Shown one piece after another: positions 10,349 through 20,892 of a stretch of 64,000 nt of DNA. Numbering within the stretch: the first letter of the stretch is position 1; every line of letters begins with the position of its first letter. The stretch spans positions 5,342 to 69,341 of the forward strand of contig CAYTCO010000003.1 of the NCBI GenBank assembly GCA_964436385.1, given 5' to 3'. The notes below the pieces were generated by a model. It worked only from the letters and a program-made list of their open reading frames with translations, did not search any database and was not told where the DNA came from. The stretch comes from an uncultured Gammaproteobacteria bacterium (GTDB lineage Bacteria > Patescibacteriota > Microgenomatia > Levybacterales > GWA1-39-11). The translations under genes and the position numbers were made by a program.

Positions 10349-11515
10349 ATGTTAATTAAGCCTCAAACAGCAAGCTTCGCAAAAATAAGAGTCATGGGAA
10401 TAGGTGGAGGAGGCGGAAATGCTACCAATTCAATGATCCTAGATGGTCAAATTGAAGGGGTAGATTTTATAGCAGTCAACACGGATGCTCAAGCGCTTCT
10501 CAACTCTCAAGCACAATCAAAACTTCAGATAGGTGAAAATATTACTCGTGGACTTGGATCTGGTGGAAATCCTGATGTTGGTCGTGCAGCAGCTGAGGAG
10601 AGCGTTGAGAGAATAAAGCAGTACTTAGAGGGATCAGATATGGTTTTTCTAACCGCTGGAATGGGTGGAGGAACAGGAACCGGAGCCTCATCTGTTATTG
10701 CAAGAGTTGCAAAAGAGGTAGGTGCTCTAACCGTTGCTGTTGTTACAAAACCATTTAACTTTGAAGGAACACGAAGAATGGTTGCAGCGGAAGATGGAAT
10801 TGAGGAGTTGAAGGAATATGTAGACACACTTATTGTTGTACCAAATCAAAGAATTCTAGATAGTGTAGACAAAAAGTTATCACTTCTTGAGGCATTTAGA
10901 GTTGCGGATTCAGTCCTTGGACACGGTGTTAAGGGCATATCAGATCTTATTACACAAAGCGGATACGTTAATGTCGATTTTGCCGATGTTAAAGCCATAA
11001 TGAATGACGCAGGAACAGCTCTAATGGGACTTGGAGTTGGGGTTGGAGAGAACAGAGCACAAATCGCAGCAAGACAAGCTATTTCATCTCCTCTTCTTGA
11101 GGTGAGTATGGATGGGGCACGCGGAGTTTTATTTAATATTGCAGGTGGAGAAGATCTATCACTTCAAGAGGTTGAGGAAGCATCTAGAATTATTACCCAA
11201 GCAGCAGATCCGGATGCAAACATCATCTTTGGAGCAACTATAGACAAAGGCGCATTTGATTCTATAAGAATTACACTTATTGCAACAGGCTTTGATGAGT
11301 CAAGAAAAAGACTTCAGCAAATGGTCCAAAGTACGATGGAAGAACAGGGACAAGATTACGGAAACGCAAATATGCAGGACAATAACCCTCAACAGGATCC
11401 ATATGGAGGAGGAAACATCAGTAATCCAACATTTCAGGCTGAAGAACCATCCCGTCGGGATGACGACGAAGAATCAGTCTTTGATATCCCCGCATTTCTG
11501 AGACAGAAAAATTGA
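10349..11515 (+). CDS. ftsZ: Cell division GTPase FtsZ
   Basis: It has the tubulin signature [20 protein letters not shown], and an acidic C-terminal tail ending DIPAFLR. Confidence 0.9.
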
Positions 11516-11621
11516 CGTTTAGTTTTCATATTTCCTACATATTACCCCGTGATTAAGTGATTGACAAGAGTCCTAAACTATATCATCTTGGTTCATTTTT
11601 TGGTAGAATGAGGCAACATAA

Positions 11622-13334
11622 ATGCGATACCAAAAATTCACAGTAAATAATTTTAAAGCAATAAAAAATGCTGAAATTGACCTTACGCAAGAAGGTTTGG
11701 TGTTGCTACTTGGTCTTAACGAATCTGGAAAAACAAGCGTACTTCGAGCAATTGAGGCATTTGATTCATCTAATGACATTGAAGATGCTGATGCAAGGCT
11801 AAGATTTTATAAAGGGATTCGCAACAAGAAGGAAGTAGATTCAACAGCCTCTGTTACGGCACAGATTTTAATTGAAAAAAGCGACAAAGATAGCCTTGTT
11901 GTATTGCTTACGCCCCATATTACGCAAGGAATCAATCCGAAGGATTTACAAATTGATACTCTCCAGATTTGCCGTTTGTTCGAATATAAAAACGCTGAAT
12001 TTGTAAAAGACGACTATCAATTAATGGGAGGTTTAGAAAAGCAACTCACTCTTGCGAATAAGACAGTTGAGAGTAATTTATGTAAAGAAATACTAAAAAT
12101 TCTTCCTTCCATTCAGTATTTTGAGGATTTTAAAGACCAAATTCCCGATTTCATAAGCATAGAAGCTAGTACACAGTACTACGACCCCGATTGGGCTAGC
12201 ACTATCGAGGGAATGTTTTTTCATGCTGACCCGAAAATCACTGTTACTCAGTTTTCAAACCTCGTTGATAAAAATCCACGTCAAACCGTTCTCAATAAAG
12301 TTAATAAAGCCTTAAACAAACAATTTACTGAGAGGTGGAACAAAAAACTAAAGGGTACAAAATCTATTCATAAGGTTGAGCTTGTATATTTCCCAGAGAA
12401 AAAGCTATTTACTTTTGAAATTGTCGGGGCTGATGGCGTAACTGTATTCGCAATTGAGGAAAGAAGCAAAGGCGCATTGTGGTATTTAACATTTCTTCTT
12501 AAAACTGAATTTAGAAAAAGAAAATTGCGTGCCGAATCTGGTAAAACGCTGTATTTGATTGATGAGCCTGGCTCTAACCTTCATTCTTCAGCACAAACAA
12601 ATATGGTAGAGGATTTTAGAACACTCGCAAGTGATTCCAATGTAATCTATACAACCCATAGTCAATATCTTATTGATAAAGAAAATCTTTCAAATGTGTA
12701 CATAGTGCAGGCTGCAAAAGGAGTAGTAAAGGTAACAAAATACCAGCAATACTTACAAGGGAAGAATATTGAAACATCATATTACCAACCAATAATCGAT
12801 GCTCTAGAAATACAGCCATTTACGTTGGATGCTCCTTGGAAAAAAGTAGTGTTAGTTGAAGGAGTCTATGATTATTGCGGATTTAGATTTATGTTTGAGC
12901 AAGTTCTTAAAAAGAAACTTGATTTCGTTATTATGCCTGGTACAGGAGCGTCCACGCTTAAAACTCTCATATCGTTGCATGTTGGATGGGGAGCATCAAC
13001 CTTTGTTTTACTTGATAATGATGATGAGGGAAGAGCAAACAAAGCGAGTTATCAGGTTAAATTTCCGCATATTGAAAAATCAATGCACGTTTTGGATTTT
13101 ATAGGGGTGGCAGGAGATTGTGAGTTTGAACAGATTTTCACTGATAAAGAGCGTAAGGACTTGTCAGCATTGGCGGGCTTCTCAGGACCAGTTACAAAAA
13201 AAGTATTTCAACAAACTCTTGCGAGCATATCCACTTCTGCAACATTATCAAAAAAAGCTACAAAACTAATTTCTTCAGCAACAGAAAAAAGATTTAAGAC
13301 GATACTCTCCTTTATCGAAAAAACCCTCGCATAA
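11622..13334 (+). CDS. OLD-family ATP-dependent endonuclease (ABC-type ATPase + Toprim), class 1 (stand-alone)
   Basis: It has a Walker A (LLGLNESGKTS), Walker B/D-loop (LYLIDEPGSNLH), a C-terminal Toprim-like VVLVEGVYD and VLLDNDDEG, and is 570 aa. No UvrD-like partner gene is adjacent. Confidence 0.65.
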   Translation: MRYQKFTVNNFKAIKNAEIDLTQEGLVLLLGLNESGKTSVLRAIEAFDSSNDIEDADARLRFYKGIRNKKEVDSTASVTAQILIEKSDKDSLVVLLTPHITQGINPKDLQIDTLQICRLFEYKNAEFVKDDYQLMGGLEKQLTLANKTVESNLCKEILKILPSIQYFEDFKDQIPDFISIEASTQYYDPDWASTIEGMFFHADPKITVTQFSNLVDKNPRQTVLNKVNKALNKQFTERWNKKLKGTKSIHKVELVYFPEKKLFTFEIVGADGVTVFAIEERSKGALWYLTFLLKTEFRKRKLRAESGKTLYLIDEPGSNLHSSAQTNMVEDFRTLASDSNVIYTTHSQYLIDKENLSNVYIVQAAKGVVKVTKYQQYLQGKNIETSYYQPIIDALEIQPFTLDAPWKKVVLVEGVYDYCGFRFMFEQVLKKKLDFVIMPGTGASTLKTLISLHVGWGASTFVLLDNDDEGRANKASYQVKFPHIEKSMHVLDFIGVAGDCEFEQIFTDKERKDLSALAGFSGPVTKKVFQQTLASISTSATLSKKATKLISSATEKRFKTILSFIEKTLA

Positions 13335-13343
13335 ATATTACGC

Positions 13344-13380
13344 CATGTCGCATTTCCACTATTGTGCGACATGATTTTGA
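13344..13380 (+). terminator. Hairpin followed by ATTTT downstream of the OLD nuclease gene
   Basis: CATGTCGCA (13344-13352) pairs with TGCGACATG (13365-13373) across a 12-nt loop and is followed by ATTTTGA. It lies 10 bp after the stop codon. Confidence 0.4.
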
Positions 13381-13710
13381 GGCTGGAATATAGAGCTATT
13401 TTAGCGCCTGAGGCTGGACGTATTACTATAAGACATTTTTATAACTCCTTTTGATGGTTTTTCGTATCGTCTCTTCATGTGTGATTTACTGGCGGGCAGG
13501 CGGTACATGGTGGGTGTTTCGTTATTGGCACACTTTTGTTGGCAGTTATAACAAAGCACATCCCCAGCGTGGCCAAATGAGGGTTTAGGGTCCAGGGGTA
13601 GGCAGTTCAAGCCCGTGGTGCGTAGAAGATTTTTTAGAATAACCCCGAAGCTAGAATATACGGTATCTCCTTTCAGGCCAGCCGATTTTTTTTAGGAAAT
13701 TTCTTGTAAA

Positions 13711-13719
13711 TGCTATAAT
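13711..13719 (+). promoter_or_regulatory. Extended -10 element TGcTATAAT
   Basis: TGCTATAAT at 13711-13719 ends only 6 nt before the annotated GTG start at 13726. This implies either a leaderless or very short leader, or a different true start. Confidence 0.25.
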
Positions 13720-13725
13720 GCTCAT

Positions 13726-14091
13726 GTGTTTGGACAAGAGTTAATTAAAAAACTTCCCGAGGATATACAAAAACTTGGAGCAATCGGCACGGTTTCGTAC
13801 ATTGGTGCATTGCTTTGTATGGTTGCAGCTTTTTTAACTGATTTTAGTACAGGTAAGGGATGGGCACTTATTGTTGCAGGGGTTGCACTGCTTACACTAT
13901 CAGGAGCAATTTATCTTAAAGAAACACTTGCACGGACTGCAAACCGTAAAGAAGCACTTACTACATTGAGAGAGGTATACAACCGCCTTGCTGAACAAAG
14001 CACTAAAGGTACAAATGAGCAAACTGTGTCAATAACAATGACTATCGCCGAGCTTCCAAAACGAATATTAGAAGTGCTTCACAAATTATAA
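13726..14091 (+). CDS. Hypothetical membrane protein (2 predicted TM helices)
   Basis: It has a GTG start and hydrophobic stretches (IGTVSYIGALLCMVAAFL and WALIVAGVALLTLSGAIYL) followed by a charged C-terminal tail. No recognisable motif. Confidence 0.4.
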   Translation: MFGQELIKKLPEDIQKLGAIGTVSYIGALLCMVAAFLTDFSTGKGWALIVAGVALLTLSGAIYLKETLARTANRKEALTTLREVYNRLAEQSTKGTNEQTVSITMTIAELPKRILEVLHKL

Positions 14092-14120
14092 TAATTTTGC
14101 TTCTTACTGCAAATGACGGA

Positions 14121-14648
14121 CTACTTAAAAAATTGTTTGAAAAAATTAGCAATACCGTTATATATTGTAGAGAAAAAGTTACCTTGCTGTTGGGGCATGA
14201 TTTTCGGCTCATCATCATAATAATTTTCTTCGCTTGGTATAATTGAATTAGGCTTTAATGTAGGTTTGGGTTCTTCGGTGGGGGTATTTGTATAATAGGT
14301 GCGTTTGGGAGTAGATGCTGATGTAGGCGTAACAACAACCTCTTTAATAACTTCTATTACTTGAGGTACTGATGTGGGGGCTATTGGATTAGGCGCAGTA
14401 TTTTTGCTATCCCAATAACTTTTGCATCTTTGAGCATAATCATTCTTCAAAGATAAATATTTCTGATAGCAAGAATCAAGAATATCGTATGTACCACTAT
14501 ACGAGGTATAAACACAAGCTTTATTGCTCTCATATGGTGGTACGGGTGGTATTACGCACCCTTCTTGTGCCAAAATAGGTAGTGCAGAATTAGAAAATAA
14601 AAAGATGAATAAAAGTACAGTTATGACTTGCTTAATAAAATTTTTCAT
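14121..14648 (-). CDS. Secreted Cys-containing, Pro/Thr-rich protein of unknown function
   Basis: It has an N-terminal signal peptide (MKNFIKQVITVLLFIFLFSNSALPILAQEG), 4 Cys in the first 60 mature residues, and a PT-rich linker. Confidence 0.45.
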   Translation of the reverse strand: MKNFIKQVITVLLFIFLFSNSALPILAQEGCVIPPVPPYESNKACVYTSYSGTYDILDSCYQKYLSLKNDYAQRCKSYWDSKNTAPNPIAPTSVPQVIEVIKEVVVTPTSASTPKRTYYTNTPTEEPKPTLKPNSIIPSEENYYDDEPKIMPQQQGNFFSTIYNGIANFFKQFFK

Positions 14649-15294
14649 ACAACTTGCCTAGGTGTTTAGTAAAAAGTGCATACTCTTCTTCTGCCATCTT
14701 ACTGTTTTCGGTAATTCGCTCATTCAGTAATTCTATATCCTTGTTTAGTATCATAATTTCGTCAAGCATTTTTTCTGATTTTGCTGTTACATACCGTTCT
14801 TTCGAATATAGTTTATTTTTTTCTTCAAGCAGTTTTTGTTTTTCTTCATATTGTACCCATAATGGCTCGCTGTCTTCCCAGTATTCCCAATACGGGCTGG
14901 CATAAAACTTTTTATATGTACTTATGTAATCGTTCTTTTTTTCGTATTCAGTCCCCGCAGTGTAATTAAATGTCATTTCGATTAAAGACCTAGGAGGTTC
15001 CAATGCCTCAAGTTCGCTTATCTTTTCCTTTAAAGCTGCTTTTGCTTTTGTTACTGTATTTCTTTTCTCCAGGTTAATCAGTTTAATCGCATCATACCCC
15101 TCATCTTTTGTAAGGTTATAAAATTTTGCATTAAAATTACCGTTGGTTATAGGAAAAGTAATAATCACAAGGAATACGAATAAACCAATTACGAGTAAAG
15201 CTATCTTTATGAAAAGTCTATAGCTTTTTATTTTTTTGTATATTTTGGTAAAAAACTTAATCATATAACGACTGCTCATGCTTCCTATAACCAT
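14632..15294 (-). CDS. N-terminally membrane-anchored coiled-coil protein of unknown function
   Basis: It has one TM helix (LFIKIALLVIGLFVFLVIITFPI) followed by heptad-like E/K-rich sequence. It overlaps the downstream secreted-protein gene by 17 bp. Confidence 0.45.
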   Translation of the reverse strand: MVIGSMSSRYMIKFFTKIYKKIKSYRLFIKIALLVIGLFVFLVIITFPITNGNFNAKFYNLTKDEGYDAIKLINLEKRNTVTKAKAALKEKISELEALEPPRSLIEMTFNYTAGTEYEKKNDYISTYKKFYASPYWEYWEDSEPLWVQYEEKQKLLEEKNKLYSKERYVTAKSEKMLDEIMILNKDIELLNERITENSKMAEEEYALFTKHLGKLYEKFY

Positions 15295-15391
15295 ACTGTA
15301 TGCATTATCTCATAAATACGCAATACTAATGCGGTTTCGGTGTACGAATATCTAAAATACCATTGTGATAATTTGGTAAGAATATACGACT

Positions 15392-15574
15392 CTAGCTTCT
15401 ATTTTGGTCAATGATTTTTTTTGATTTCATTTCTTCTGCCTTTTGCTTTCCCCTATTTTTTGCCATCTCAAGTAACTTTAGTCTATCCTTTTCTTGAAGA
15501 GTTTTCATCATCTTCTCGTAAATTTGCTCAGCCGTCATTTTTCTTGGATTAAATATGCCAATCAGTTTTTTCAT
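15392..15574 (-). CDS. Small basic (Lys-rich) hypothetical protein
   Basis: The ORF is 60 aa, and its start overlaps the stop of the FtsK-gamma gene by 1 nt, suggesting translational coupling. Confidence 0.3.
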   Translation of the reverse strand: MKKLIGIFNPRKMTAEQIYEKMMKTLQEKDRLKLLEMAKNRGKQKAEEMKSKKIIDQNRS

Positions 15575-15786
15575 TAATTAAGGAATTTATGTTTTATAAC
15601 TTTTATCTTAGTAGACTCTCCCGTTTCGACATAACCCATTTCCTCTAATTTTTTGATTACTTTCTGTGCTCCTAGATAGCCTATTTGAAGCTTCCTTGAG
15701 ATAAATGGCCAAGAAATATAGTCCTCTTTAATAACTATTTCAACGGCACGGTCAATTTGAGTACCATTCTTTCCTTTTCTGCCCAT
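15574..15786 (-). CDS. Stand-alone FtsK/SpoIIIE gamma-domain (winged-helix) protein
   Basis: RAVEIVIKEDYISWPFISRKLQIGYLGAQKVIKKLEEMGYVE matches the FtsK gamma-domain pattern A.E.V...xxxS.S.LQR.LRIGYNRAARLID.LE..G.V. The protein is 70 aa. Confidence 0.55.
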   Translation of the reverse strand: MGRKGKNGTQIDRAVEIVIKEDYISWPFISRKLQIGYLGAQKVIKKLEEMGYVETGESTKIKVIKHKFLN

Positions 15787-15788
15787 AC

Positions 15789-16154
15789 TTAACGATTAGC
15801 CGACACTTCATCTATAATCTTCTTCATGTCTTGATTCATCGATTCAATTTGCAAGTCAGCGTTTTTTCTTTTCACATTGAATTCGTCTAGCTTCCGTGCC
15901 TCTTCTTCAAAATTGCATGTGCTGAGATGAGTAGCACACGCTGTTGCTGTATTGTAGGCTTCAGAGCACGATTCTGCGAGGTTCTGTGATGCTTCCATGC
16001 TACCAATAGCGTTCGATAGAATCCTTGCGGTCAGCTTCTCACTTGAACTTAATTCTGCCCTGGTGTAGATAAATACCACTAAAGCACCTATGAACAAGCA
16101 GGCCATTCCAATTAGTAGTTCTTTTTTAGACAGAATCTGAATTTTCTTTTTCAT
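15789..16154 (-). CDS. Hypothetical single-pass membrane protein with a Cys-containing soluble domain
   Basis: It has one TM helix (LLIGMACLFIGALVVFIY), then an approximately 85-aa domain containing CSEAYNTATACATHLSTC. Confidence 0.4.
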   Translation of the reverse strand: MKKKIQILSKKELLIGMACLFIGALVVFIYTRAELSSSEKLTARILSNAIGSMEASQNLAESCSEAYNTATACATHLSTCNFEEEARKLDEFNVKRKNADLQIESMNQDMKKIIDEVSANR

Positions 16155-16488
16155 GCTGTTTTATATGCCCATCAACCTCATCCGATATTCTTTTATCCTT
16201 CTCCCTTCTTTTTTTAGCATCATCCTCTAGGGCTGAATAATGCATCCTATCATATTTGTCATAAACCATTTCCTGACCAGCAAGAAAACCCGTAATTGAA
16301 AATATGATTATAACCGTAAAGACCGAGAAAAAATCCGACTTACCCAGTGCAAAATAAACGAAAACTAATCCCCCAAAAAACAGAACTCCAACTACAAATT
16401 TTGTGTGCTTATACCCTCTCATATTATAAATAAGCTCAAGAACATCATAACTCCGACTAACTTTTATTTCAATAGGAATTAAGGCCAA
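16126..16488 (-). CDS. Hypothetical membrane protein (2 TM) with a charged C-terminal tail
   Basis: It is the first gene of a minus-strand operon that diverges from the XRE gene. It has two hydrophobic helices followed by a K/E/D-rich tail. Confidence 0.4.
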   Translation of the reverse strand: MALIPIEIKVSRSYDVLELIYNMRGYKHTKFVVGVLFFGGLVFVYFALGKSDFFSVFTVIIIFSITGFLAGQEMVYDKYDRMHYSALEDDAKKRREKDKRISDEVDGHIKQHEKENSDSV

Positions 16489-16500
16489 ATGCTCGCTCTA

Positions 16501-16520
16501 GGCTAGTGGAGTCTCTAGCC
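16501..16520. promoter_or_regulatory. Short inverted repeat GGCTAG-N8-CTAGCC in the divergent promoter region
   Basis: It lies in the 53-bp gap between the minus-strand operon start (16488) and the XRE regulator start (16542). It is a candidate operator. Confidence 0.25.
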
Positions 16521-16541
16521 AATAGCTATCAAAATTAGGAC

Positions 16542-16760
16542 ATGGGTAAAACACCAAAGATTTACGAGAAGCTAGGAAGAAAGATTCAGAAGGCCAGAAA
16601 AGAAAAAGGTATAACCCAGGAGAGATTAGCCGAGCTTTCAGATATATCGAGAACTCATATGGGGCATATTGAGCAGGGAAGAAGACAACCTACTCTGGAT
16701 GTTATACAGAAAATTGCAAAAGCATTGAAAATGAAAGCAAACGAACTAATCCCCTTCTAA
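16542..16760 (+). CDS. XRE-family (Cro/CI-type) helix-turn-helix transcriptional regulator
   Basis: ITQERLAELSDISRTHMGHIEQGRRQPTLDVIQKIAKALKMKANEL is the classic HTH_3 pattern. The protein is 72 aa and is divergent from the membrane-protein operon. Confidence 0.8.
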   Translation: MGKTPKIYEKLGRKIQKARKEKGITQERLAELSDISRTHMGHIEQGRRQPTLDVIQKIAKALKMKANELIPF

Positions 16761-17116
16761 TACTATAAGTCTAGTAATTGTTAAGATAGTGTTAGGTGTG
16801 ATTTTAAGCTTTATTTATGCCTGATTACGCTTAAAAATAAATCAACTTTTCCTACGTATTATAAGTCATTTATCTATACCAACGGAGTGTTTTAAGGATG
16901 ATATTTTGAAATCGTCCTTGACAAATACAGTTTTAGTCGGATAGGGTAAATATTAATCCAGGTTGAGAACTGGCATTGTAAAGGGCTAAGTCTGACACGC
17001 AATGTTAAACAAAGATGGGTCAGAGGGAGTAAAGGTAAGAGTATATAGGTCAGCAAGCATACAATCTCACAGTGTGCAGAGATGAGGCACGGGGTTGTAC
17101 TTCAAGAGGGAGCAGA

Positions 17117-17166
17117 GGTCATATATGACCCAATGGCTTGGAGTTTTACAAACACTTACAAACACT
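17117..17166. repeat. 14-bp perfect palindrome GGTCATATATGACC followed by a tandem 2 x TACAAACACT
   Basis: The palindrome is at 17117-17130 and the tandem 10-mers at 17147-17156 and 17157-17166. They lie inside a 568-bp non-coding gap (16761-17328) next to the integrase gene. Confidence 0.4.
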
Positions 17167-17328
17167 CACGAAATAATGAGTCAATTTGCACTAACTCTAA
17201 TGGGGGGAAGGGGGGAGGTTTGCTCCGCAAACAAAGATAGAAAAAAAGCCATTTTTAATTCTATTAAAAAATGCTTAAGAAAGAAAAAAAGTAATAAAGT
17301 AATTTTAAACTTAAAGCTACTTAAAACT

Positions 17329-18396
17329 TTAAATAATAGGGAGAGTTGCGCTTTCAAGTGATTCTTCGGGAGCAAGTGATAATAAAATATTGTATGAATT
17401 ATTGTCTCCATTGATTTTAAAATTAAATCTACTATCTGCTCCAAACTTAAACTTATTTAAAAGCTCCATGAATTCATCTATTCTATCTTGTGGATTTTCA
17501 TACTTTCTTAGCAACGGATGTTTTCTGACTGCTTTTTGAAGTGTTGTATCTGCTAAATGTATATACGTTTCGTATGTTACCCGTATGTCTTTGTGTCCCA
17601 AGAGTTTTGCAACAATTGTTATATCAATTCCAGATTGAAGCAAGTGTGTTGCGAATGTGTGACGAAGAATGTGTGCATGTAGTCTCTCAAATTTACTTAT
17701 TCCAGCAAGTTTTCCTCTTAATCTAAGATTTTCATTAAATGTTCCTGGCAATATTTTATTTCCTGTGCTTCCAGTAAAGATAAGTTCCTCAGAATCTCTC
17801 TCTTGGATAAGCCCCCTTAGAGAATTTTTTAATTTATCGCCATCAAAGTAAACATTTCTATTATCTCCATTTTTAGTTTGCACCAAATAAGCTTTACCGT
17901 TTTCAATATCAAGCCTTTTTATTTGAAGTGAAGCAGCTTCATCAAACCTACAGCCAGTTATGGCCAAAAATTCAGTTAGAGTTAGATATTTGTCATCAAG
18001 GCTACTGTTATTCTTTCCATTCCTGTTTTTGTATTCCACTTTAGTGGACAATAAGCTTACTAGCTCGTCTTCTGAGAGAATCGTTATATCTGGATGTGTT
18101 TTGGGTAGATTCTTTGTGCCTTCAGTGAATCCGAACGGTAGTTTATGATATTTGCAATATTTATCTATCAATAGGAACACATTCCGATATGTGTTTACAG
18201 TGGAGTTACTACGCTTGAGCGTATACTTCTGCGCGTACAAGAAGTTAATAACGTTCTCGTTGGTCAACTCAAGATTATTTTCCTCAAGCCAAGCCGTTAT
18301 TATTCTAAAACGGTTACGATATGTACGGATTGTATTACCGACAATTCCTTGATTAATTGTCAGAAACTTTATGAACTCTTCTTCTTTGATTTTCAT
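17329..18396 (-). CDS. Tyrosine recombinase/integrase, Xer-like
   Basis: The C-terminal HILRHTFATHLLQSGIDITIVAKLLGHKDIRVTYETYIHL closely matches the XerC/XerD box II/III (R..H..LLGH...Y). The protein is 355 aa with an N-terminal SAM-like core-binding region. Confidence 0.85.
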   Translation of the reverse strand: MKIKEEEFIKFLTINQGIVGNTIRTYRNRFRIITAWLEENNLELTNENVINFLYAQKYTLKRSNSTVNTYRNVFLLIDKYCKYHKLPFGFTEGTKNLPKTHPDITILSEDELVSLLSTKVEYKNRNGKNNSSLDDKYLTLTEFLAITGCRFDEAASLQIKRLDIENGKAYLVQTKNGDNRNVYFDGDKLKNSLRGLIQERDSEELIFTGSTGNKILPGTFNENLRLRGKLAGISKFERLHAHILRHTFATHLLQSGIDITIVAKLLGHKDIRVTYETYIHLADTTLQKAVRKHPLLRKYENPQDRIDEFMELLNKFKFGADSRFNFKINGDNNSYNILLSLAPEESLESATLPII

Positions 18397-18801
18397 GCTT
18401 ACTGATTTGATTCAATAAGCAAGGGCTGAAAAATTTACAATTCTTTTTAAGTAGGGGAAGTATCTACAAGAGAATCGTAATTAACATAATTATATCAAAT
18501 TTGAGGCTAAAAATCAATCCCCAAAATATTTTATACTTGACTTGCCTCAAAAATTGCCCTGCTTTTTGAATGCAAATTGGAGAAGTAATTAATTTTTGAT
18601 GTATAATATTTGTGTATTTCTGAGTCGGAAAAGTAATTAGTATATGAGGCTAGTATCTTTCTTGGTTCATGAGTCCCCGCTTTTTTACGTCAGAAAAATT
18701 AAAAAGCCGAGGCTCGACCGAACGGGCGGCCCCGCAGTTCTACGACAAAAGAACTAAACATCTTGACAACTAGACTTAATTTGTTATAACATTGTTATAT
18801 T

Positions 18802-19017
18802 ATGGTACAGCAATTAATCTCTATAGGTAATTCTGTTGGGGTAATCATTCCAAAAAATGTGCTTAAAGAGAAGAATATAAAATTGGGTGATACGGTTGAA
18901 TTTGACATCAAGTCTGTTAAGCCAAAAACTACAGATGTAGATGTTCGTTTCATGAAGATGGTTGACGAGTTTGTTGAAGACCACAAAGATGTTCTTCAAA
19001 AACTCGCAACTCGATGA
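18802..19017 (+). CDS. AbrB/MazE/SpoVT-fold antitoxin (Phd-like partner of Doc)
   Basis: ISIGNSVGVIIPKNVLKEKNIKLGDTVEF is the swapped-hairpin AbrB-type motif. The protein is 71 aa and overlaps the Doc gene by 4 bp. A promoter-like TTGACA-N17-TATAAC lies upstream, around 18763. Confidence 0.65.
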   Translation: MVQQLISIGNSVGVIIPKNVLKEKNIKLGDTVEFDIKSVKPKTTDVDVRFMKMVDEFVEDHKDVLQKLATR

Positions 19018-19403
19018 AATACTTATCTACCCCTCAAGTTTTGGCGATTCACGATCAAATGGTAAAAAGATTTGGTGGCTCAATGGGCATTAGAGATTTA
19101 GACCTGATTGAATCTGCCGTTGAAAGACCAAAAACAACTTTTGATGGAGCTGATTTGTATTCCACAATCTTTACAAAGGCAGCTGTATTTATGCACTCTT
19201 TGTTGAAAAATCATGCGTTTGTTGACGGAAATAAGAGAACATCTTATGCTTCCTGTGGTATCTTCCTGAAACTAAATGGCTACGAGCTAGAAAATATGCA
19301 TAATGCAAGCTTGGAATTTACCATGAAGGTCGAAAATGATTCCATTAAGATTGGGGAAATCTCTGAATGGCTTGATAAACATTCAGTTAGACTACCTAAG
19401 TAG
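19014..19403 (+). CDS. Doc/Fic-family toxin (death-on-curing)
   Basis: It has the Fic/Doc motif HAFVDGNKRT (HxFx(D/E)GNKR). The protein is 129 aa. Confidence 0.75.
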   Translation: MKYLSTPQVLAIHDQMVKRFGGSMGIRDLDLIESAVERPKTTFDGADLYSTIFTKAAVFMHSLLKNHAFVDGNKRTSYASCGIFLKLNGYELENMHNASLEFTMKVENDSIKIGEISEWLDKHSVRLPK

Positions 19404-19466
19404 AGGCAGTCTTTACGCGTAGGAAAATTTGCTTGAAACTCAGGAGTATGTTTATTTCCTAGTAAT

Positions 19467-20234
19467 ATGAAATTGATGTCTTACAACATTTTGGATGGGG
19501 CGGTTAATACTTTGTCCCAGATTATTGATGTTGTAAATTCAGAAGCCCCTGATTATCTGACACTTAATGAAGCAAATACTTTTGCAAATGACAATAGTAA
19601 AATTCTTAAAGAATTTGCTCATGCCACTGGCTTTCCTTATTTTGAAATAGCACTTTCTGGTGAGATGGATTATAACGTTGCTGTTTTTTCAAAATACCCA
19701 TTCATTAAAATTGATAAACTTCAGCCCTTAGCAAGAGCATGCATTGTCGCCAAGATAGAGTCCCCAATTGGCATAATTTCTATTGCAAGTCTTCATTTAA
19801 CTCCGTATTCTGAAGACCTCAGACATCCTGAGATAGATAAAATCCTTGAGTTCCAAAAAAGTGAAGAAAATAGAATTTTGATGGGGGATATGAACTCACT
19901 TTCTAAAAATGACAATTATAATGTTGAGATTGTTAAGAATTTTAACGTTAAGCAGACTAAGAAATTCACAACCGATGGAGTTCTTCGATTTGACGCAATT
20001 GACAAGATCATGTCCGTAGGATACTTTGATTCTGCATTCGAGCTGGGTGAAAATCATGAAACCACAGTACCTACAAAATCAAACCAGGATCCGGCGCACA
20101 AATTCATGAGGCTTGATTATATTTTTGTATCAAAGCCATTAGTTAAAAAACTTAAGTCCTATGATGTTGTAAAAAATGGGCTAACAGATATTGCCTCCGA
20201 CCACTACCCAATAACTCTAAACCTCAATGCTTGA
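19467..20234 (+). CDS. Endonuclease/exonuclease/phosphatase (EEP) family protein
   Basis: The N-terminal MKLMSYNIL and C-terminal SDHYPITLNL are EEP signatures. Confidence 0.6.
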   Translation: MKLMSYNILDGAVNTLSQIIDVVNSEAPDYLTLNEANTFANDNSKILKEFAHATGFPYFEIALSGEMDYNVAVFSKYPFIKIDKLQPLARACIVAKIESPIGIISIASLHLTPYSEDLRHPEIDKILEFQKSEENRILMGDMNSLSKNDNYNVEIVKNFNVKQTKKFTTDGVLRFDAIDKIMSVGYFDSAFELGENHETTVPTKSNQDPAHKFMRLDYIFVSKPLVKKLKSYDVVKNGLTDIASDHYPITLNLNA

Positions 20235-20892
20235 ATTTAAAAACGTAAAAATCACGAAATCCAGTAGGAGGTCGATAGCCATCATGGTTCATCCCGATGC
20301 CACTGTTGAGGTAAGAGCTCCTAAATTTATTCCTGAATTTGCAATAAAAGCATTTATTAAAAGTAAGGAAGATTGGATAGAAAAGAGGGTAGAATTCGTC
20401 AGAAAAAATAAAGCTCTAAAAAAGCAATTTGTTAATGGAGAGCGGTTTCAATTATTAGGAAAAGACTACACTTTGCTTATTGGCAACTACACTGCGATTG
20501 AAATAAAAGATGGAAATATATTATTCCCTTTGGGTATGGTCTCTCACGGACGCGAAATGCTTGAGAAGTGGTATGTGCGTCAAGCAAAAGTAATTATAAA
20601 AAATTTAGTTGATGAATATTCAAAAAGCATGGGCACTTCATACAACGGGCTGACATTTTCTGATACTTCTTCAAAATGGGGATCTTGTACGCATGACAAT
20701 AGACTTCAATTCAATTGGAGACTCGTTATGACTCCACTTCTTGTTGTTAGATATGTCGTTATTCACGAGCTTGCACACACTTTTGAAAAAAATCACTCAG
20801 CGAAATTTTGGAATAAAGTCAGAAGCGTCAACCCGTCATACAAAGCTCAGATAAAATGGTTAAAATTGCATGGAGGAATGCTAAAATTCTAA
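20227..20892 (+). CDS. YgjP-like (DUF45/M48-related) zinc-dependent hydrolase
   Basis: It has the HELAHTFEKNHSAKFW motif (HExxH followed by NHS..FW). Confidence 0.6.
   Translation: MLEFKNVKITKSSRRSIAIMVHPDATVEVRAPKFIPEFAIKAFIKSKEDWIEKRVEFVRKNKALKKQFVNGERFQLLGKDYTLLIGNYTAIEIKDGNILFPLGMVSHGREMLEKWYVRQAKVIIKNLVDEYSKSMGTSYNGLTFSDTSSKWGSCTHDNRLQFNWRLVMTPLLVVRYVVIHELAHTFEKNHSAKFWNKVRSVNPSYKAQIKWLKLHGGMLKF

Follow-up and report, generated by a model that had tools for sequence, protein, structure and literature searches.

An OLD-Family ATPase/Toprim Nuclease Gene as Probable Exchangeable Defence Cargo of a Small Element in the ftsZ 3′ End of a Levybacteria-like Bacterium

The cargo gene and its protein

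Within the stretch of DNA analyzed here (64,000 nt of contig CAYTCO010000003.1, hereafter the window, to which all coordinates refer unless a relative's locus is named), an open reading frame (ORF) at 11622–13334 on the plus strand adjoins the division genes ftsA and ftsZ and is the first gene of an integrative element. An initial annotation, made from the sequence alone, had described its product as a stand-alone OLD-family protein with an ABC ATPase and a Toprim nuclease domain in one 570-aa polypeptide, encoded at the edge of such an element beside division genes, and both the architecture and the placement held. The ORF begins with ATG, has GAGG 8 nt 5′ of the start, and encodes all four of the motifs on which that description was built; the motif set is far above chance and confirmed the ORF as real. 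In an alignment of 35 homologues (38–70% identity), to which all statements on conservation refer, the catalytic residues are invariant. The gene and the features of its protein are as follows.

11622–13334, plus strand: OLD-family ABC-ATPase/Toprim nuclease gene, 570 aa, cargo of the element
11712–11738, plus strand: Walker A, GLNESGKTS (residues 31–39); G31, N33, E34, S35, G36, K37 and T38 invariant
12459–12476, plus strand: ABC-signature-like motif, E-R-S-K-G-A (residues 280–285); E280, S282, K283, G284 and A285 invariant
12555–12584, plus strand: Walker B and D-loop, LIDEPGSNLH (residues 312–321); D314, E315 and H321 invariant
12657–12659, plus strand: H-loop, H346, invariant
12849–13031, plus strand: Toprim core (residues 410–470, PF20469), from VLVEGVYD (410–417) to LLDNDDEG (463–470); E413, G414, D417, D465, D467 and G470 invariant
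13128–13331, plus strand: E503 (13128–13130), K526 (13197–13199) and a helical extension (residues 508–570), from conservation and predicted helices

Of the two Pfam models that the initial annotation had proposed as checks, AAA_15 (PF13175) matched residues 1–351 (E = 1.7e-21), and OLD-like_TOPRIM (PF20469) matched residues 407–467 with 24.7 bits (cut-off 23.2) when the C-terminal part was scanned alone. The Toprim catalytic residues, whose presence on alignment had also been left to be checked, are all there: E413, D417, D465 and D467 fall on the E-G-x-x-[DE] and D-x-D motifs when aligned to P2 Old and E. coli YbjD, and the spacing of E413 and D417 together with the D-x-D matches the metal-A/metal-B ligand pattern of Thermus scotoductus (Ts) OLD (E377, D381, D431, and D433), which has also been defined in Bp OLD (PMC7049728). 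The Walker B region aligns with “IDEPELYLH” of P2 Old by hhalign, and H321 occupies the D-loop position that is likewise a histidine in Ts OLD (PMC7049728). Judging by its position about 30 residues ahead of Walker B, E-R-S-K-G-A probably represents the ABC signature. The OLD family further has an [ST]-x-E metal-B ligand and a Lys/Arg for stabilising the transition state; E503, which is invariant, is a candidate for the former, and K526, conserved in at least 90% of the sequences, may fill the latter role.

The full-length AlphaFold model (pLDDT, the predicted local distance difference test score, 85; predicted template modelling score 0.76) contains a predicted helical insert at about residues 185–245 within the ATPase, a possible counterpart of the dimerisation domain that OLD-family ATPases have as an insertion. 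Four further helices are predicted at residues 508–570 with pLDDT above 90, forming a C-terminal extension of about 60 residues past the Toprim domain.

The element in the ftsZ 3′ end and its cargo slot

The extent of the element was read from repeats of the ftsZ tail and from close relatives whose FtsZ is 92% identical to that of the window. The features concerned, with the other genes of the element, are listed here.

10349–11515, plus strand: ftsZ, the integration target (Pfam Tubulin and FtsZ_C)
11487–11513, plus strand: attL, the left one of three direct-repeat copies (starting at 11487, 18674, and 18729), located in the ftsZ 3′ end and reading IPAFLRQKN-stop
11516–11621, plus strand: leader borne by the element, running from the ftsZ stop to the cargo gene and alignable over about 70 nt with the one before AbiP2 in relative L098
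13726–14091 (plus), 14121–14648 (minus), 14632–15294 (minus), 15392–15574 (minus), 15574–15786 (minus), 15789–16154 (minus), and 16126–16488 (minus): seven small ORFs within 13726–16488, most without homologues
16542–16760, plus strand: Xre-type helix-turn-helix (HTH) regulator, 72 aa; NCBIfam and PHROGs repressor families; 60% identical to the L098 Xre protein
17329–18396, minus strand: tyrosine integrase, 355 aa; Pfam Phage_integrase (E = 4.7e-32), phrog_1; 49% identical to the L098 integrase
18674–18702, plus strand: attR, displaced ftsZ-tail remnant, encoding VPAFLRQKN-stop
18729–18759, plus strand: second ftsZ-tail remnant, encoding PAVLRQKN-stop and ending GACAAAAGAACTAAAC, as does native ftsZ at the empty site

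The last 27 nt of ftsZ (11487–11513) are repeated at 18674–18700 and 18729–18755, beyond the integrase gene, and a six-frame translation of the window shows the peptide pattern of the ftsZ tail at these three places only. The repeat spacing of 7187 nt gives an element of about 7.2 kb. In two of the relatives, L101 and L102, the site is empty: a YgjP-like gene, whose counterpart in the window lies at 20227–20892, is found within 1.3 kb of ftsZ, with no integrase. A third relative, L098, carries a related element at the same site, with a tail remnant past its integrase. The last ftsZ codons of the window (about 11499–11515, ...CAGAAAAATTGA) are supplied by the element; they differ from the native tail at the empty site of L101 (...CAAAAGAACTAA) and resemble the tail of the L098 element. 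A replacement tail ending ...AATTGA and a leader of about 70 nt after the stop are common to the window and L098 elements, and the sequence of the empty site diverges from both at the ftsZ end. Together, the empty site, the native tail, the L098 element, and the shared leader establish an element of about 7.2 kb that inserts in the ftsZ 3′ end and supplies a replacement for the conserved C-terminal peptide of FtsZ. Since its end, GACAAAAGAACTAAAC, is identical to the native end, the outer remnant is the original chromosomal tail.

Behind the shared leader, the first gene of the L098 element encodes a 545-aa reverse transcriptase (RT) that matched the PADLOC AbiP2 model end to end (E = 1.1e-164), and that element has no OLD gene; the cargo gene of the window is likewise not present in L101 or L102. 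AbiP2 is an abortive-infection protein typical of the hypervariable region of P2 prophages (PMC9226505), and this hotspot is occupied by old and tin in the reference genome of P2 (PMC9122126). This swap between an OLD gene and AbiP2, with its parallel in the P2 hotspot, supports the view that the window gene is exchangeable defence cargo. In P2-like phages, too, an OLD gene and an AbiP2 RT alternate at one slot, which takes many other genes as well (PMC9122126, PMC9226505); here the setting differs in being a 7.2-kb element with no recognisable phage structural genes, in a host of the candidate phyla radiation (CPR), with its attachment site in the ftsZ 3′ end and two cargo variants seen so far.

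The host assignment draws on two sets of relatives: those closest to the OLD-like protein carry Patescibacteria names, and the named relatives of the window FtsZ, at about 70% identity, are Candidatus Levybacteria. The host is therefore a Levybacteria-like CPR bacterium belonging to the Microgenomates.

The same element was found in contigs from three other samples. A 30-mer from attR retrieved no metagenome contig, a search with the flanking Doc gene (see below) returned only another occupied site, and composition gave no signal of foreign origin. A consensus scan found no sigma-70-type promoter in the leader (11516–11621), and a conserved TTGACA-like box there was rejected as a promoter, since it failed both the spacing rule and the consensus scan. 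No replication or phage structural genes were recognised in the element, which could be a satellite, a mobilisable island, or a remnant. One of the small ORFs (15574–15786, minus strand) encodes a 70-aa FtsK-gamma-like winged-helix protein; the small genes at 13726–16488 encode mostly predicted membrane or secreted proteins without homologues outside the element.

The initial annotation had suggested looking for co-variation of the downstream small genes with the OLD gene, and this was not borne out: none of the element's small ORFs co-occurs with the OLD-like gene in other loci, and the Xre HTH gene alone recurs. Xre genes of 35–39% identity lie directly beside the OLD-like gene in L005, L006, L007/8, and L011, in mobile contexts marked by large serine recombinases (L005, L006, and L011) or type IV secretion genes (L007/8). 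In L007/L008 (9718–14395 of a CPR contig), genes for VirB4/TraG-like and TraC-like proteins, a type IV secretion system pilin, and an M23 peptidase adjoin the OLD-like gene, which suggests a conjugative element in a CPR bacterium.

Several further observations were made around the site. The two ftsZ-tail remnants lie 26 nt apart (18674–18759), and the inner one may have been left by an element that integrated earlier and was subsequently lost. Between the Xre and integrase genes, about 570 nt (16761–17328) hold no convincing ORF and no Rfam match, and could contain regulatory sites or an unknown RNA. Directly to the right of attR (18802–19403), a gene for an AbrB/SpoVT-like antitoxin (71 aa) overlaps one for a Doc/Fic toxin (129 aa; TIGR01550, E = 2.4e-18); the pair is present neither at the empty site of L101 nor in L098, which gives it the look of a small insertion of its own between ftsZ and the YgjP-like gene. 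In two other pairs of relatives with FtsZ 92–97% identical (L099/L100 and L104/L105), different unannotated genes directly follow ftsZ, a 253-aa ORF in one pair and a 278-aa ORF with a TrmB-like regulator in the other, and what follows ftsZ appears to vary generally in this lineage.

Family relations and gene context

A database search returned 496 homologues, with full-length relatives at 50–70% identity, and a profile search covering 1.84 billion representatives returned 828 clusters (50% identity) at E ≤ 1e-30, nearly all of 560–640 aa and matched end to end. In the PADLOC check proposed in the initial annotation, the whole protein matched Old (E = 3.5e-19). Old was also the best model for residues 289–570, with the longest of the alignments shown: it covers residues 301–534, taking in Walker B and extending beyond E503. 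When only the C-terminal 205 aa were scanned, PADLOC gave no match at E ≤ 10. When the family profile was aligned by hhalign, the match ran from Walker B to the D-x-D motif with both P2 Old (probability 94.7%, E = 5.9e-8) and E. coli YbjD (probability 86%, E = 4.8e-6).

The structural comparison, which had likewise been suggested, gave matches of the full-length model to GajA (8u7i_A, E = 1.2e-15, and 8sm3_A) and to Ts OLD (6p74, E = 1.8e-14) as the best PDB hits, followed by SMC/Rad50 heads and PtuA; many PADLOC GajA models also matched the protein, at E = 1e-11 to 1e-14. By sequence profile the nearest family is thus P2-type Old, and by full-length fold GajA/Thermus OLD; the OLD subfamily of the protein itself, about 830 clusters in size, is divergent and uncharacterised. 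Modelled alone (pLDDT 90), the C-terminal domain resembled primase Toprim domains in Foldseek (probability 0.91–0.99; 0.91 for the Toprim domain of T7 primase), and among viral models it matched generic primase-type Toprim only. It showed no significant match to Ts OLD (6P74), and the C-terminal profile gave at most a weak match to a small Toprim protein among PDB sequences. The subfamily is distributed patchily over phyla, and PHROGs holds related families of unknown function.

Gene neighbourhoods were compared in 80 species-level loci from a genome collection and seven more from exact-protein look-ups, with ORFs called and neighbours clustered. No neighbour cluster was conserved at +1 or −1 in 86 family loci. 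In Pfam scans of the immediate neighbours (79 upstream and 80 downstream), N6_Mtase was found upstream in 6/79 and Methylase_S downstream in 7/80; ResIII recurred in four, and HTH_3 in three upstream and three downstream. A helicase partner, whose absence the initial annotation had used to set the gene apart from Gabija GajAB, was indeed missing: the window has no helicase gene, the genes downstream being small ORFs without homologues, and tblastn with UvrD against the 87 loci and the window found no UvrD-like gene in the GajB position. The only two UvrD matches lay two genes upstream of the family member in L073 and 7 kb off on the opposite strand in L072, no UvrD-like family was among those shown for immediate neighbours in the Pfam scans, and linkage to a helicase gene was not consistent across the 87 loci. 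The other large ORFs scanned in the 64 kb are housekeeping genes (IleRS, RodA/FtsW, and polysaccharide genes).

Under the context-based scheme of OLD classes (PMC10568477, PMC12392090), Class 2 (Gabija GajA) was rejected with no GajB/UvrD-like partner in the window or the 87 loci, and the gene differs in this from gajA even though GajA is its best full-length fold match. Class 3 (retron) was rejected with no RT gene in the element and no Rfam match at E ≤ 1 in 11000–19500, and Class 4 (PARIS), split or fused, with no DUF4435/AriB signature. With no helicase, RT, or AriB-type partner, the gene is therefore Class 1, single-gene, by gene context. Like P2 Old, Ts OLD, Vibrio cholerae (Vc) OLD, and YbjD, it is a single gene (about 550–590 aa in that group) encoding an ABC ATPase followed by a Toprim domain, with a D-loop histidine, a histidine H-loop, and E-x3-[DE] and D-x-D acidic clusters, and like P2 old it is borne on a mobile element. 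It differs from these in that the similarity is remote (E = 1e-8 to 1e-19) and in that a minority of its subfamily is embedded in restriction-modification (R-M) operons. That stand-alone OLD proteins are poorly characterised, as the initial annotation put it, is now partly outdated, given the Ts OLD structure, the Vc OLD nickase, the work on YbjD, and a 2026 preprint describing P2 OLD as a tRNase.

The stand-alone status described in that annotation applies to the window copy, which lies outside any type I hsd operon, and not to the whole family, in which about 12/86 members have type I R-M neighbours (HsdM, HsdS, or HsdR). In two CPR homologues, P0033 (52% identical) and P0034 (53%), a methylase and a specificity gene flank the family member, with overlaps of 4 nt; at P0034, hsdS is followed by another OLD gene, of the canonical kind. 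In L012–L014 (for example L013, 4177–12825) the order is hsdR, hsdM, a 564-aa family member, hsdS, and a 590-aa canonical OLD gene (PF20469, DUF2813); the two OLD-like proteins share about 30% identity over 90 residues only, and hsdM of L012 is broken into three pieces. In a Beckwithbacteria genome (L003/L004, 8049–13154) the family member is flanked by a 651-aa HSDR_N_2/N6_Mtase/Eco57I protein and a 466-aa specificity subunit, with a LexA-like gene immediately upstream; the flanking enzyme resembles type IIB or type IIG-like systems and not classic type I.

PrrC is the classic case of an embedded gene, with a nuclease domain of a different kind. ABC-ATPase/Toprim defence genes embedded in R-M, BREX, and Hma systems are already known, and one such ATPase-Toprim fusion, HEC-04, is a validated phage defence (bioRxiv 10.1101/2024.01.29.577857). 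The P0033 and P0034 genes resemble these in position and domain fusion; the window copy differs in not being embedded, and HEC-04 is outside the 25 best PADLOC matches shown.

Explanations of the locus and their significance

We consider it probable that the window gene encodes a single-protein, Class 1 OLD-family defence nuclease and is the first gene and exchangeable cargo of the 7.2-kb ftsZ element. Of this, the sequences themselves show the domain architecture and conserved catalytic residues, homology with Old and YbjD, and the absence of a partner gene; they also show where the element ends, the unoccupied site, and the exchange with AbiP2. From the swap, which strengthens the anti-phage role suggested in the initial annotation, we infer that defence is the likely function; oligomeric control, trigger, and substrate may be as follows. 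If the protein works as P2 Old, Vc OLD, GajA, and HEC-04 do, its ATPase heads would keep it in an inactive oligomer with the Toprim site closed until an invader provides a cue that releases the site, perhaps foreign DNA that is aberrant or replicating, or else an anti-restriction protein. The site would then cut nucleic acid (tRNA or DNA) by two-metal catalysis, and the cutting would stop the invader or abort the infection. P2 OLD is cued by aberrant or replicating DNA and acts on tRNA (2026 preprint, bioRxiv 10.64898/2026.07.10.737580), Vc OLD nicks DNA (PMC12392090), and PARIS and PrrC respond to anti-restriction proteins (PMC12707154).

A number of observations weigh against this explanation. 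The PF20469 score of the whole protein (22.1 bits) is slightly below the 23.2-bit cut-off, PDB sequence searches with the protein and the family profile matched the ATPase motifs only, with remote similarity to OLD, and the C-terminal nuclease domain alone had no significant PDB match in Foldseek, the hits to GajA (E = 0.7) and AriB (8v46_D, E = 0.78) being non-discriminating. Nor do all traits fit the published description of Class 1 Ts OLD (PMC7049728): the ABC signature is degenerate there and S282-K283-G284 is invariant here, and Ts OLD lacks a C-terminal helical domain, in contrast to the extension of about 60 residues predicted for our protein, although such traits are descriptive of characterised Class 1 members and not a formal class definition. 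No member of the subfamily is functionally characterised, and the subfamily is rare on IMG/VR viral contigs. Finally, the cargo swap is known from one alternative element only, that of L098, and an integrase-based metagenome scan found one short true relative and no further cargo variants.

An unlikely alternative is that the family is primarily an accessory of type I R-M, either a PrrC-like “guardian” set off by inhibition of R-M or an additional subunit with nuclease activity. The window copy would then be an orphan that acts in trans with an R-M system of the host or has lost its function. The translationally overlapping insertions of P0033 and P0034 between methylase and specificity genes and the recurrence of HsdM, HsdS, or HsdR beside family members favour such a role; yet most loci, including all of the closest relatives (59–70% identity), are without R-M genes nearby, none was found among the scanned ORFs of the window, and R-M systems harbour many kinds of defence genes that do not depend on them (bioRxiv 10.1101/2024.01.29.577857).

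We regard as improbable a fused PARIS-type (Class 4) system, in which an AriA-like sensor joined to an AriB-like Toprim tRNase would be triggered by anti-restriction proteins such as Ocr and would cleave tRNA. PARIS shares with our locus an ABC ATPase with a Toprim effector, carriage on mobile elements, and, for some relatives here, the link to R-M operons, a position that would suit an anti-restriction sensor. The initial annotation had set PARIS aside on account of its split AriA/AriB arrangement; a single polypeptide is insufficient for this, as fused ariAB genes exist (PMC9122126, PMC12392090), and the conclusion stands instead on the missing AriB-type DUF4435. AriA was the top PADLOC match to the ATPase (E = 1.4e-23), but that match is generic: with 373 positions, the model spans residues 1–351, just as the 374-position AAA_15 does. 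Neither Pfam at E ≤ 1, nor PADLOC for the C-terminal part at E ≤ 10, nor the best 25 PADLOC models for residues 289–570 included a DUF4435/AriB signature, P2-type Old being the best model for this half of the protein, and no AriA or AriB chain appeared among the 60 PDB profile matches listed or the top 50 fold matches.

That the protein benefits the element and not host defence, by addiction or stabilisation, by excluding rivals from the ftsZ site, or in replication through its Toprim domain, seems hardly probable. The gene's first position in an element with no recognisable replication genes, the likeness of the nuclease-domain core to primase Toprim domains, and the two nested ftsZ-tail remnants, which suggest repeated use of the site, are consistent with such a service; however, the L098 element has AbiP2 in its place, so that the gene is dispensable for the element, the protein has no primase zinc-finger or polymerase domains, and members of the family are also found by themselves amid housekeeping genes or within R-M operons. 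A housekeeping DNA-repair ATPase of the RecF/RecN/SbcC/Rad50 type, to which weak N-terminal matches (RecF, Rad50, SMC, and UvrA) might point, is effectively refuted by the empty site in L101/L102, the matches being confined to the P-loop and Walker B regions far under family cut-offs and the gene lying in a mobile element, patchy across phyla, and not present in close host relatives.

Beyond the defence nuclease explanation, we put forward a wider reading as a tentative whole: the protein may represent a distinct OLD subfamily, with an intact ABC signature and its own Toprim-plus-helical module, and the element an undescribed family of ftsZ-targeting elements of CPR bacteria that rebuild the FtsZ tail and have a swap-in defence slot holding OLD or AbiP2. 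The subfamily would alternate between single-gene mobile cargo and a translationally coupled insert between hsdM and hsdS, a setting that would point to a sensor of anti-restriction or of R-M failure.

CPR bacteria (Patescibacteria) have tiny genomes with few recognised defence systems, and to our knowledge almost nothing is known of their mobile elements. The finding leaves the known categories of systems unchanged, as this kind of system is already known; moderate interest comes from its occurrence in a CPR host, from ftsZ as the attachment site, and from the exchange of OLD and AbiP2. The locus offers a single-gene OLD-type nuclease from an uncharacterised subfamily, carried by a small integrative element with defined ends that has its attachment site in the essential gene ftsZ and repairs that gene, with a cargo slot that in close relatives holds either the OLD nuclease or an AbiP2 RT. 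The link of the subfamily to type I R-M provides a handle on the triggers of single-gene OLD proteins, and, if the wider reading is true, the ftsZ elements would be the CPR counterpart of the P2/P4 defence hotspots.

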